A stretch of DNA of 64,000 bases from Ginglymostoma cirratum (taxonomy: Eukaryota): positions 17,256,799-17,320,798 of the forward strand of contig JAHRHZ010000061.1 of NCBI GenBank assembly GCA_024137785.1, read 5' to 3'. A model generated the notes under the pieces. It was not told the DNA's origin, did not search any database, and worked only from the letters and a program-made list of their open reading frames with translations. Position numbers and translations under genes: made by a program. This document shows positions 1 through 60,340 of the stretch, piece after piece (position 1 is the first letter of the stretch; every line of letters starts with the position of its first letter).

Positions 1-300
1 CTGGACTGACCTATCTCCTCCCTACCCCCCTACCTACACTCACCTTTACTGGCTCCATCCCCGCCTCTTCGACTTGTCTGCCTCCTCTCCACCTATCCTC
101 TCCTCTATCCATCCTCTATCCGCCTCCCCCTCTCTCCCTATTTATTTCAGAACCCTCTTCCCCTCCCCCATTTCTGATGAAGGGTTTAGGCCCGAAACGT
201 CAAGTTTTCCTGCTCCTATGATGCTGCTTGACCTGCTGTGTTCATCCAGCCCCATGCTTGTTATCTCGGATTCTCCAGCATCTGCAGTACCTTTTATCTC
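1..300 (+). mobile_element. Penelope-like element terminal (pLTR) fragment, family A
   Basis: Pyrimidine-rich tract, then hammerhead motif, then tail ...cctgctgtgttcatccagc...ccagcatctgcagt. The tail is essentially identical to 16052-16161. Confidence 0.7.
170..205 (+). ncRNA. Minimal (short stem III) hammerhead ribozyme motif, intact core
   Basis: attt-CTGATGA-A-GGGT(ttag)GCCC-GAAA-CG-TC-aagt. Helix I attt/aagt (one G-U), 4-bp helix II, ACGT palindrome in place of helix III. Confidence 0.65.
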
Positions 301-1299
301 TTGAGCAATTTACCAACTACTCTTACCTGTTGCTGACCTTTCACAGCAAATGTCATCAGCTTCCCTGACCCCTGACATTAGAAGACCTTAGGGCTTGCCT
401 TGACACACACCTGTTTAAAAGTATCTCCTTAGTCCAGTTAAATGCAGGTCATATTTATAGACCGTAAAATTGCAGGCAAGAGACTGTGACCCCAGTTAAA
501 TCAAACTCAGTTTGTTTGCTGGCATCTTTACCACAGCATTCAGGAACAATAAATATCTGCAGTGGATCAATTAAGGGATCACACTGAATCAATTATCTGA
601 GACAACACTTTACAATATTTTTTCAAGAGAAAAGACTGGGTTCTTCCACCACCAAAGGAATGATGGAAAGGCCAAGCCCTTAAATTCTTCTCATTGATCA
701 GATTCCATTTACATATTGCTTGGTGTGCATTTTTTGGTCAATTTTAAAACAAATCCAGATTTAAAAATACCCAAACCATGAGGAGCCAGAGGGCAGAATC
801 TCCTTATTGGAGAGTGCTCTGTATTTTTCTGTTTCCAATTGCCATGGTTTCAAGCAAAGGTTAATAAGCTGCATGACCTTTGCAGGATTTCATGATGGTC
901 TCCCGGGCTTCATGCGCTGATCCCACTCTTCGATAACTGTTCACGATGCTGTCACTTGCTCAGACTCTCTACTCCCTTGATAATCTCTCAGTGAAAATGA
1001 GGAATGTTCAATCAAATTTCACATGAAGGCAACCCAAATTACATAATTTCTTTTTCGGGATAGACTTTTCCTGAACTGCTGATACGTGAACAAGGAGAAA
1101 CAAGCTATAGCCTTTACAGTTAAACAAATCTAGACATTATTTTCCTCTTCAGATCCACAGCCATAAAATAGCCGTCTCCCAGTTAAGAAAATGCACTGAG
1201 ATACCACAAAGCACAAATCGCAACATGCTTCTGAAAAGCACAGCAGCCCAGAATGAGACAGAATTTATCAGTTTCTGGAGTCAGGATAGAGTCCTAAGT

Positions 1300-2500
1300 T
1301 CGGGCATTGTTGTATTTGAAGCTCAGGCCTACATCATGATTCAAATGATCAGAGTGTAGAGGGATCTCACAGTCAGACATAAAAATCAAAATCCTTCTGC
1401 ATTTCTATTGAAAGGGAAGGCTGGAGAAGTGAAGGAATATTGAACAACACGTTTCTTGCATTTTGAAAGACATTCTTGAGGATTGACGGCCTTCAGAACC
1501 AACTTGATATCGCAGACAAGAATCCATTGATCAGGCAACTTACAGTTGTCCACTGGGAAGTAAATGTTCAGTCACTTAGCATCAGAGGACCCTGCTGGAC
1601 AGGAACAGGATCAAACATGGCCGCTGTATGTCATTATTGGCTAACAAATTCTTAGTCACCTGGGTAAATGTTGGGTCACGGAGTTGTCCAAATCTGCACA
1701 GGTTTGTAACATTAGCTAGATATCACTGACCCATCAATTTTTCACAGTTACCTCAGACAATTCAAAGAATTATAGAGTATCAAAATGTAAATACTAACTG
1801 TTTAAAAAATAAGCAGAATGTAAATGCATGTTAAATAAACTGCCTGAACTATAATTTGCCATGTAATTCACACCAGTCATGGAATGTACCCAGTGAACCA
1901 GGAGACAATTCATGCCAGGTCATCCAAGTCCTGAATGATGACAATAAACAGGAACAGCTTGCAGTCCCTGTATGTGACTCACAATCCCACATACGCTGAA
2001 GTTACAGATGGCTAAGTTTGTTTTGCCTCCTACAACTGGCTTACCTGATAGATGAATTGCAGCGTTATCAATATGAAGCCATCAAACAAGATATAACATA
2101 TTCCATGAAGAGTCTTCATAGCTTTCCATGGCCACATCTTGCCATTGACCAAATGGATATCAGAACAAACCATTACAGGATGAAGGCAAAACCATCTCTA
2201 CATCAATCACATGCTTCTCCATTTTACCTTCTGGAGAAAACCTCATTTGTTCCTCTTCGAAATATTCAGAGATTGAAGGTGATAAGGCAGATGCTCTATA
2301 ATTCACATGACAAGCACCAAGCTTACTCCTACAGACCAATATTAGAAGAACTGCCTCAGATATCTTCCTCTGACAAACAGGGTCACTGGATAGTAGCAAA
2401 ACCTTATGACGACACTGTGAGGGCTGTCCAGAACATCCATTACCACAAGCTACATTTCTGTCAAATTCTTAACATCAAAACTGGCAATCAACATGAAATA
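1300..2500 (+). mobile_element. Highly decayed RTE/BovB-like LINE RT fragment
   Basis: Scattered remnants in the expected order: IQVLNDD (cf. IxxLHDDM), LIDELQRY (cf. ELQYADD), YHKLHFCQILNIK.W (cf. FHQRCLRxILxIxWQD). This explains ORF 2018-2530. Confidence 0.45.
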
Positions 2501-2686
2501 TTAGGTCTGATGAGGAGGGATATTTTTTAAAAAATTAACAATCCTCCACTTTCGGTTAATGCATCCACTCAATTATCAATCAGTGTGTGAAAAAGTTTAA
2601 TATTTGCACACAAACAAAGCATTTTTTTGTCACAGTGAACATTTCTGCTTTAAGGAAGGTACAAAAGAAGCAAAATCTGACCTTAC

Positions 2687-2833
2687 CTGAGACAAGTGAG
2701 ACCGTGTCTTTCTCCCATGACACTACAGTGATATAAGTCTCCACAGAGGAGGGGATAATGCACTTGAAGACCGCTACATTCCCCCGCATGGCTTTCTGGT
2801 CCTCTACGCGGACTGTATAGGGCTCTCTTAAAA
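2687..2833 (-). CDS. DSCAM: DSCAM coding exon 3 (N-terminal part of Ig-like domain 2), 147 bp, phase 1-1
   Basis: Translates (V)[48 protein letters not shown](G). Acceptor ttgtcctcAG at 2835-2834, donor GTAAGG at 2686-2681. Splices in frame to exon 2 (KA|V LREP). Confidence 0.97.
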
Positions 2834-57734: not shown

Positions 57735-59300
57735 TGATGTGTTTCACACATAGCAAGTAGATTGAGTTCTTTCTTGAGTCAGTTATATTGAAGTTTATTT
57801 ACAACACTGACTATTTACAGTGGCATATCACAAACTTACATGCAGAGTTGGAGTTCTATGCTTCCTGATGTTACAGTGCACACACAGTCACATCCCTGAC
57901 TGACTATTACACAAAAAGATGACTGAAAATATGCCAGGTACCTCATACAGGGACGTCATATGATGTCAGATGAAAATTACATGCCTGTATGGTCTTGAAT
58001 CTATGCCACAATTCAATTTTTTTCTCCCTTAAAAGAATATAAATGCTTTATGATAACATACACAGTATATTTAGGTATATTGTCACTATATATTTAGATA
58101 GCATGTTAGTGGATCTGGTCCTTTTATAGTTATCATGACTTGATAATGCTCTCTACGGTGTGCTGCCTGTCGTCACGTTTGATTGATGTGTCACTTGCCT
58201 CAGATGTGAGGTTGTTGGCTGACAATATCTTTAGTACCGGAGTCATCAACTTGTATGACAAGTAGTTGATGATATGCAGTTTGATTAAATTGTCTATTTT
58301 TTCACAGGACTTGGCAATTGTTCATTGCAACAAAAATATCAAAAATCTGTCACAATCTATCACCTTCAAAGGAATCTCGTGTGAAAGGAAAGGTCCTCTT
58401 GGTTGTTGAAGTTGATGAAATTGATGTGTGTCATACAACTTGATTAATTGATGTTCTTATTGATACCAAGCCATTATATGGATATTCAGCTTTATGAGAT
58501 GCTGTCCCTTTAAAATATGCAGATTTATGCTTGCAGGTAGCATTCATGGCAAAAAAGTGCTGACATCATGCTCTTGTTTTTATGCAATTTTTGAAGGAAG
58601 AAGAAGAAGAAAACAGCAGAATCAACCAACTTCTAGACACAGGTAAGGCCTCTTTAGTTCTTTTTACTGTGTTTCTTTCCTGTACTTTGTTCTGGTATTG
58701 CTTTCTTAGATTGGCACTGTCTTTCAGAATATTTAAATTGCCATTTAGGGGGATAAAACAAAAAAGTTAAGCTGTCCTGGGCCACTTGAAAACTGACAAT
58801 TTTGTTTTAAAGAAAGGAGAGGTAGATTACTCACTTTTCTTCAGTACGGGTTTGGAATCTTTAGTTTTGGGTGCAGTTGTGACTTCAGCTCTGAATGCTG
58901 ACAGACTGATGGATGACATGAGGAAGAAACTTTTTTAGCTTTTAGAGTCTACTTACTGCCACTAACTAGCTGTCACAACTAGCCATGATCCACTTTGTGG
59001 TTTTCTAAACATTATCCCATGTAGCATATCATGAAGAATTGATCTTTGTTGAGTCATATCTTGAGGGTTACTTACAAGGCTAATTAATTGCACAGCTATA
59101 ATATCACAGACTTAGATACTTAGTCTTGGTTCTGTGTTTGCTGATGTTACAGTAGATTACACACAGACTAACTACATTGATCACATGACACAGGGACAGT
59201 GACTGAAGGTGAGGCAGATATCTTGACACCAGAACATCACATTTCATATAACTGTCTTAAAAGATATTGATCCATGTGACCTGGAATCTGTGCCATATTG
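57735..59300 (-). mobile_element. Decayed, internally deleted LTR retrotransposon
   Basis: Diverged ~280-bp direct repeats at ~57735-58010 and ~59020-59300 (ttgagtca, ctgatgttacagt, tgactgaa, gaatctRtgcca). A polypurine tract lies on the minus strand at 58011-58030. Confidence 0.5.
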
Positions 59301-59497
59301 CAACACTTCCTACAGACAGAAACTTCCCTTTACTTTTGTTCTTTATCTCTTTCCTCCCAACAAAATCACTTCCTAATAAATCCAAAGACACTCACCTATC
59401 AGCAATGTTTTGACTTCCTCAAAGTGTCTACTTCCCTCAGAGTCAGAAAACACCATCACAATCCATCCTAAGCATCTACAATTAGCTCAGATTGCTG

Positions 59498-59821
59498 GGT
59501 GACACGGTGGGTCAGTGGTCAGCACTGTTGCCTCACAGCACTAGGGACCTGGGTTTGATTCCAGCCACGGGTGACTGTCGATGTGGTATTTTTCCCTGTA
59601 TCTGCGTGGGTTTCCTCCCACTGTCCAAGGATGTGTAGGTTATGTGGATTAGCCACACTAAATTGCCCATTGTGTCCAGGAATGTGCACGCTAGGTGGGT
59701 TAGCCATGGGAAATGCAGAGTTGCGGGGATAGGGTGGTGGCGGGTGTGGGATGCTCTTTTGAAGGGCAGTGTGAACTTGATGGACCAAATAGCCTGCTTC
59801 CACACTGTCGGCTTTCTATGA
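59498..59821 (+). mobile_element. HE1-type V-SINE
   Basis: Head, partly deleted V-domain, tail. Confidence 0.88.
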
Positions 59822-60138
59822 TGTGCCCAGTGGCCCTGACCCAGATGATACATTACTGTAACTTGCTCACAACTGATGTTCAACTTACCGGGATGAACAG
59901 GATTGCCAAACAATATAAAAACAATAATACATCTAATTCATTTGAGATCCAAGTAATCTCATTATAACTGGGATAATAGATAACAGATAATACTAATTAA
60001 TGAGAGCAACAAATCTCTATCAATTAGTTTAGAGAGTGACGTGAGGAAAATGGGCCCTTTTCTCTGCTGTAGACCTCTCTGACTATAACTCTAAATACTA
60101 GTGCTGGAGAATTCTGTTTCTTCCTGAGCATGGTCAGA

Positions 60139-60340
60139 ACTCACATGATACTAGGTTATATTCCAACAGATTTATTTGAAAACACAAGCTTTTGGAGCCT
60201 AACTGCTTCTTCAGGTATCAGTGGAGAAGGAGCGAGGTTCCGAAAGCTTGTGTTTCCAAATGAACCTGTTGGACTATAACCTGGGGTCCTGTGATTTCAG
60301 ACCTTGTCCACCCCAGTCCAACATTAGCACCTCCACATCA
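60139..60340. mobile_element. Inverted pair of PLE family C termini with degenerate hammerheads (GAAA-GC-TT type)
   Basis: ggttata.tccaacag.tttatttg.aaacacaagctt mirrored by aagcttgtgtttccaaatgaacctgttggactataacc. Cores are CTGAAGA-A-gcagt..gctcc-AAAA-GC-TT (minus) and ..GA-A-ggagc..gttcc-GAAA-GC-TT (plus). Confidence 0.65.

Follow-up and report, generated by a model that had tools for sequence, protein, structure and literature searches.

Minimal hammerhead motifs in a Ginglymostoma cirratum contig, probably at the pseudo-LTR ends of several Penelope-like element families

We analysed a 64,000-nucleotide stretch of the Ginglymostoma cirratum genome (assembly GCA_024137785.1, contig JAHRHZ010000061.1, forward-strand positions 17,256,799 to 17,320,798; hereafter the window, numbered from its first letter), in which short hammerhead ribozyme motifs recur on both strands. 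It is highly probable that these are minimal type I hammerheads heading what are likely the pseudo-long-terminal-repeat (pLTR) ends of several families of Penelope-like elements (PLEs), in copies that are themselves likely inert. They are of a known kind, the minimal hammerhead ribozymes (min-HHRs) that Cervera and de la Pena described in 2014 (PMC4209133), and most copies are decayed. A first-pass annotation had proposed minimal hammerheads of the PLE type that fall into several sequence families and have a palindrome where helix III would be, and this much is supported.

Every motif site listed in that annotation is real and lies at its position and on its strand. Its list lacked the arms 16050-16173 (+), 41787-41991, 55889-56025 and 2972-3046 (-), and its several families lacked a fourth, decayed one (17827+ and ~15190-). 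A strict descriptor, defined by an intact core, a helix II of at least 4 bp, a palindromic insert and a helix I of at least 3 bp, finds three sites (174+, 16034- and 34422-), and relaxing helix I to at least 2 bp adds a fourth (28904+). Across 200 block-wise dinucleotide shuffles of the window, the mean number of descriptor hits was 0.005-0.01 and the maximum was 1. With three to four strict hits against 0.005-0.01 per shuffled window, the motif count therefore lies above chance, in a comparison in which copies of the same family are not independent and the core is common to three families.

A reading in which the motif arose by chance, within a repeat without ribozyme ancestry, is already largely refuted, and we give it next to no credence. 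Apart from the non-independence of same-family copies, it can point to Rfam, which returned no match at the gathering threshold for the 64-kb window and no hammerhead match at E ≤ 5 for positions 1-1000 (three chance matches there had E values of 2.7-4.1), and to unremarkable fold z-scores (-1.7 to +1.1 for four motifs). It is contradicted by the recurrence of one core with different helices in three to four families and in an unrelated, apparently intact PLE (L002, described below), by the same core beside a PLE remnant in a second sequence (L001), and by traits that match those reported for min-HHRs (PMC4209133). A custom covariance model recovers its own nine training motifs by construction, and its other matches have E values of at least 0.19.

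The core had been described as largely fixed, which overstates its preservation. It is intact in just 5 of the 11 full motifs (170, 16038, 28900, 34426 and 20888), and the other six carry one or two substitutions in CUGANGA, GAAA or UH. Four motifs have G12>A (34427, 51662, 47004 and 60218-), a change at the proposed general base of the hammerhead, and each of these changes sits after a C, as expected from CpG deamination. The remaining two show A6>C (25369) and C3>G plus A6>G (60217+). Among the motifs with intact cores, 28900 has a helix I of merely two pairs and 20888 has lost its palindrome through C>T. The nucleotide inserted between A9 and 10.1 is an A in all 11 full motifs and is not apparent in the decayed fourth family; the 10.1-11.1 pair is G-C in ten motifs and G-U in one. 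Helix III is replaced by a palindrome (15.2-16.2) in 9 of the 11, which leaves two that depart from the annotated pattern.

Covariation of the helices, also claimed at first pass, does not exceed that of shuffles within the window. For nine motifs of families A and B, 2 of the 9 pairs change on both sides, as do 3 of the 81 cells; shuffles reached values as high in 133 of 500 cases for pairs, 48 of 500 for cells and 26 of 500 for the covariation score. Helix II of families A and B shows no two-sided change. A differing helix II is found only in family C, where it still pairs (5/5 and 4/5 pairs), and this family was excluded from the count because MAFFT placed it out of register. The 5′ strand of helix I is, in several copies, partly junction or flank sequence.

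Every motif heads a unit of 95-140 nucleotides, and these units are solo, paired head to head, or terminate a decayed PLE reading frame. Families A-C account for 13 insertions in the window and the fourth family, D, for one; these 14 insertion events in 64 kb include only five intact cores. The 3′ ends of families A and B fall into two classes about 35-45 nucleotides apart (+92 to +98 or +118 to +137 in A; +96 to +101 or +137 to +139 in B), the difference corresponding to the PLE 'tail', and 3 of 14 A/B arms are shorter than both classes. Five insertions are head-to-head pairs (16038, 34426, 41900, 55966 and 60215), two of which had been given as two-strand sites, and in all five the long end is present on a single arm. 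Of the 10 insertions tested, 5 are flanked by clear target duplications, 8-16 bp in length.

Family A comprises a pLTR with tail at 170-301 (+; intact min-HHR at 170-205), a related solo copy with tail at 25366-25497 (+; core A6>C), two solo copies with the short end at 28900-28996 (+; core intact, 16-bp target duplication) and 51661-51759 (+; G12>A), and two head-to-head pairs. The pair at 15941-16173 contains an intact min-HHR (16003-16038, -), a plus-strand arm with tail (16050-16173) and a 13-bp target duplication; in the pair at 34304-34491, flanked by a 15-bp duplication, the motif at 34391-34426 (-) is intact and that at 34427-34462 (+) has G12>A. Between the arms of the former pair, at 16037-16050, lies a second short copy of the 5′ half of the motif, and the same 12 letters stand between the joined sides in one public contig. 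Short stretches at 28892-28899 and 51650-51661, between flank and element, resemble tiny inverted arms by eye, and the seemingly solo copies at 28900 and 51661 may also be pairs. Family B includes a solo pLTR with the short end at 20785-20889 (-; core intact, palindrome lost, 10-bp duplication), a solo pLTR with tail at 46851-47005 (-; G12>A), an old head-to-head pair joined inside the motif at 41787-41991, a pair with truncated arms at 55889-56025 and a fragment with the 3′ half of the motif at 21903-21945 (+). This half copy starts about 420 bp after an assembly gap of ten N (21472-21481). Family C is a head-to-head pair at 60129-60342 with both cores broken and an 8-10-bp target duplication.

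Some of these units adjoin remnants of protein-coding PLEs. At 4272-3047 on the minus strand, profile searching places the decayed 3′ part of a PLE, with a linker, a GIY-YIG remnant (3914-3825) and a pyrimidine-rich 3′ untranslated region (UTR); another repeat at 3460-3800 splits it, and its downstream end is a decayed family-B-like pLTR (3046-2972, -) whose hammerhead is largely eroded. A comparable tract (81% pyrimidine, 169 nucleotides), likely also a PLE 3′ UTR, occupies 1-169 (+) and runs off the window start, such that 2 of the 13 family A-C insertions extend upstream into pyrimidine-rich 3′ UTR, one of them behind the GIY-YIG remnant. A second decayed PLE reading frame spans 15650-17090 (+), with reverse transcriptase (RT) motifs and an endonuclease part recognized by eye only; from about 15650 the remnant is colinear with RT proteins from a protein search. 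It is bracketed by inverted 310-nucleotide family D repeats, 70% alike, at 15155-15470 (-; decayed hammerhead near 15190) and 17556-17858 (+; decayed hammerhead at 17827). Within 15155-17858 the young family A pair is nested in the decayed PLE and interrupts its RT motifs, and one repeat of about 350 bp lies inside both decayed PLEs (3460-3800 and 17139-17491, 81% alike). The clade names Neptune and Penelope/Poseidon, which we presume for the two remnants, come from sequence motifs (CxxC linker) and not from a tree.

Elements outside the window point the same way. A relaxed pattern scan yielded L002, a metagenome contig of about 3 kb (1-3018) with a single 961-amino-acid RT/GIY-YIG frame, apparently an intact PLE, whose hammerhead (28.8 bits, E 8.8e-7) lies at the extreme 5′ end, upstream of the first ATG. 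Its 84 relatives are mostly RT proteins (PF00078), many with GIY-YIG (PF01541). A profile built from these 84 proteins matched the window at 3914-3828 (-; E 1.5e-4), 4230-4012 (-; E 8.7e-3) and 15710-15796 (+; E 3e-4), against a best E value of 3.0 in the reversed window used as a control. By forced global alignment, the first ~130 nucleotides of L002 are colinear with families A and B at 62% mean column identity. In L001, which the relaxed pattern also returned, a near-identical minimal hammerhead (545-578, -) lies a few hundred bases from a broken PLE RT; its support is weak because the motif is on the strand opposite the RT and there is no second repeat. Pattern scans for parents of the families turned up only non-identical elements: the first pattern gave no parent in viral, genome or metagenome contigs, and the body pattern gave none in viral contigs. 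A further candidate, L003, was rejected as a chance bacterial match. The top two protein-search hits were long proteins, one (P0086) a zinc-finger repeat protein, and neither was used.

Several results weigh against the assignment to PLE pLTRs. The colinearity of L002 had to be drawn from a forced alignment because blastn of its first 200 nucleotides against the window detects only matches to the 27-nucleotide core. Pfam found no RT or GIY-YIG family in any of the 10 remnant pieces, and a word search with one piece was likewise empty. The 64-kb window shows no complete parent element for family A, B or C. What ties family A to a reading frame is colinearity with a distant element together with the pyrimidine tract, and family C has no direct link to a PLE frame; the two frames adjoin B-like and D repeats. 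The family-B-like copy at 2972-3046 aligns weakly (score 35), and the other 5 of the 10 insertions tested show no clear target duplication. CpG positions are changed in 5 of 32 cases against 54 of 655 elsewhere, a small sample. Finally, nearest-neighbour energies, which ignore the tertiary contacts of the core, fail to favour a double-hammerhead fold over its alternatives for 7 of 7 motifs.

Public contigs provide a further view of the first insertion. The set covers four runs of the 24 listed, all of them contigs, in which depths are not copy numbers and are silent on transcription and cut ends. Two runs of a single organism (A) placed 10,398 and 16,603 contigs on positions 1-400, and two others placed 18 and 6. 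Cover ends at about 301, and loose ends cluster at 171 and 301. Contigs that span the tract at 1-169 also reach the motif at 170, indicating that the tract belongs to the same abundant repeat. Within 170-205, variants at 5% or more in the two large runs affect only N7, one base of loop II and the final base of helix I. CpG sites carry such variants in 3 of 4 cases outside the motif and 0 of 2 inside, too few for a claim of selection.

These data bear on whether the short units are self-standing non-autonomous retroelements, either SINE-like (resembling short interspersed nuclear elements) or monomeric retrozymes, copied by PLE proteins in trans. We consider this improbable. Many copies do have a near-fixed length, their own target duplication and clustered 5′ ends, and non-autonomous PLE derivatives have been published (Chlamys MRC1, retrozyme monomers). 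Yet 2 of the 13 family A-C insertions run upstream and the contigs put the tract in the same repeat; the window contains no head-to-tail array, its only tandem repeat being an unrelated one of 22 nucleotides, and ARAGORN finds no tRNA in it, hence no tRNA head on the units; and internal priming on a parent RNA would yield the same end classes. The 'non-autonomous retroelement families' of the first-pass annotation are unsupported because two copies extend into a 3′ UTR, family D brackets an RT remnant and the L002 repeat is colinear. The units look instead like the pLTR plus tail of protein-coding PLEs.

Across 15 aligned arms, a count that leaves out three reference copies, none starts where cleavage is predicted to occur (+28 or +30 relative to C3). 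Thirteen start between -6 and +17 of C3 (one only through erosion), one starts at +60, and one is placed by different aligners at either -29 or -7. By insertion, 11 of the 13 in families A-C have at least one arm starting from 7 nucleotides before to 17 after C3. We infer that the template was uncleaved RNA, as in the Anolis carolinensis Poseidon element PAc. Splicing of a first exon located upstream was rejected as an explanation for these edges: solo copies have no common upstream sequence.

We propose the following mechanism. An RT/GIY-YIG protein would nick both DNA strands about 8-16 bp apart (following PMC11167929), and reverse transcription would start at either of two sites internal to the RNA, giving two 3′ end classes and an optional tail. 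The template would be uncleaved RNA, and short copies would be run-off or truncation products stopping at the hammerhead; priming within the element RNA, close to its 5′ end, would give them their fixed 5′ end. Where both nicks are extended, the two cDNAs could join head to head to make pairs. In a parent tandem, the palindrome may bring two motifs together as a dimer that cuts weakly, perhaps assisted by protein (PMC4209133). The inserted copies have gathered core changes, mostly of CpG type, and are predicted no longer to cut.

The clustering of ends also allows a more tentative idea, which we regard as rather unlikely: that the hammerhead fold, apart from catalysis, also serves PLE integration by setting the endpoint of reverse transcription and the point of joining for cDNAs primed at opposite DNA nicks. 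Head-to-head junctions do lie on the motif, in some cases accompanied by brief microhomology or by a portion of the motif that has slipped. We hold this idea at low confidence because a transcription start or splice acceptor at that position would explain the clustering equally well. In the parts of the PLE literature searched, we found no discussion of 5′ ends or inversion junctions clustering on the hammerhead. Such a role, if true, would explain why solo minimal hammerheads are so abundant and why pLTRs are inverted, with cleavage not required for either.

The window also holds part of a host gene. A DSCAM-like immunoglobulin-domain exon is found within a frame at 8472-8885 (-; domain match E 8.5e-21); it is the only exon mapped, and we take the rest of the window to be host intron. 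Three core-intact motifs (16038, 20888 and 34426) share its strand and amniotes have domesticated intronic hammerheads, which raises the question of whether the host has put some copies to use as ribozymes within its introns, cutting the DSCAM-like pre-mRNA. We judge this very improbable. Motifs 16038 and 34426, the intact sense-strand motifs of their pairs, are predicted to be buried by their own inverted arms in long hairpins (-172.8 and -123 kcal/mol), and 20888 lacks the palindrome. At 99% identity to the copy at 170, the 16038 copy is also young. Monomers of the min-HHR class were uncleaved in vitro (PMC4209133). In predicted monomer folds of the core-intact family A motifs 170, 28900 and 34426, the CUGA box pairs with bases around the cut site. 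Elsewhere the window carries numerous short repeats and two long interspersed nuclear element copies with endonuclease and RT domains (Pfam Exo_endo_phos and RVT_1), at 31146-32350 (-) and 48605-51040 (+), the latter with two long open segments. A 380-bp inverted repeat (38523-38902 and 39941-40320, 98% complementary, spacing 1038 bp) has no relation to the hammerhead families; it may represent a young DNA element or have arisen by local inversion.

The motifs resemble metazoan PLE min-HHRs in their type I core, the extra base after A9, the G10.1-C11.1 pair and the palindrome for helix III, and likewise in occurring as several families per genome, mostly as single dispersed motifs with some opposite-strand pairs (PMC4209133). 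Such ribozymes are reported there in fish Xena, Poseidon and Neptune elements, coelacanth, Xenopus and reptiles; the main-text portions and two supplement files searched name no shark. Unlike the Schistosoma motifs, with a helix II of 7-8 bp, those here have 4-5 bp, and opposite-strand pairs abut rather than lying 100-700 bp apart. As in those PLEs of the Neptune and Penelope/Poseidon clades that carry an endonuclease (PMC8557442, PMC3846280), we find 5′ truncation, an adjacent inverted head-to-head copy, a 30-40-bp tail on one arm, solo pLTRs and short target duplications, whereas duplications reach 13-16 bp here against 8-10 bp there and most insertions consist of the pLTR only.

A mechanistic parallel is PAc (Frangieh 2024, PMC11167929), with which the insertions share the tail and, probably, extension from both strands. 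In PAc, two internal RT start sites make the tail, both strands are nicked and extended, the insertion template is uncleaved RNA and hammerhead mutants still insert. Its motif overlaps the start codon at the junction of pLTR and open reading frame, whereas here most short copies have it at their 5′ edge. Non-LTR retrozymes (Li 2026, bioRxiv 10.64898/2026.07.22.740005) likewise carry type I hammerheads related to PLE pLTRs and occur as dispersed monomers, including in the single chondrichthyan sampled, where tandem units average 363 bp; they are defined by tandem units, unlike the copies in this window, which has no tandem array. In a literature search covering few subscription journals, that chondrichthyan was the only case of hammerheads in cartilaginous fishes found in the portions of sources consulted.

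As a class these motifs are a minor addition, since PLE minimal hammerheads have been described since 2014. Cleavage in vitro is weak and was not needed for insertion (PMC4209133, PMC11167929). The copies preserve, by the thousand, the junctions at which young vertebrate PLE families integrated (family A copies are 99% alike), and their 5′ ends, tails and inverted junctions, collected genome-wide, could test what part the hammerhead plays in the PLE cycle.

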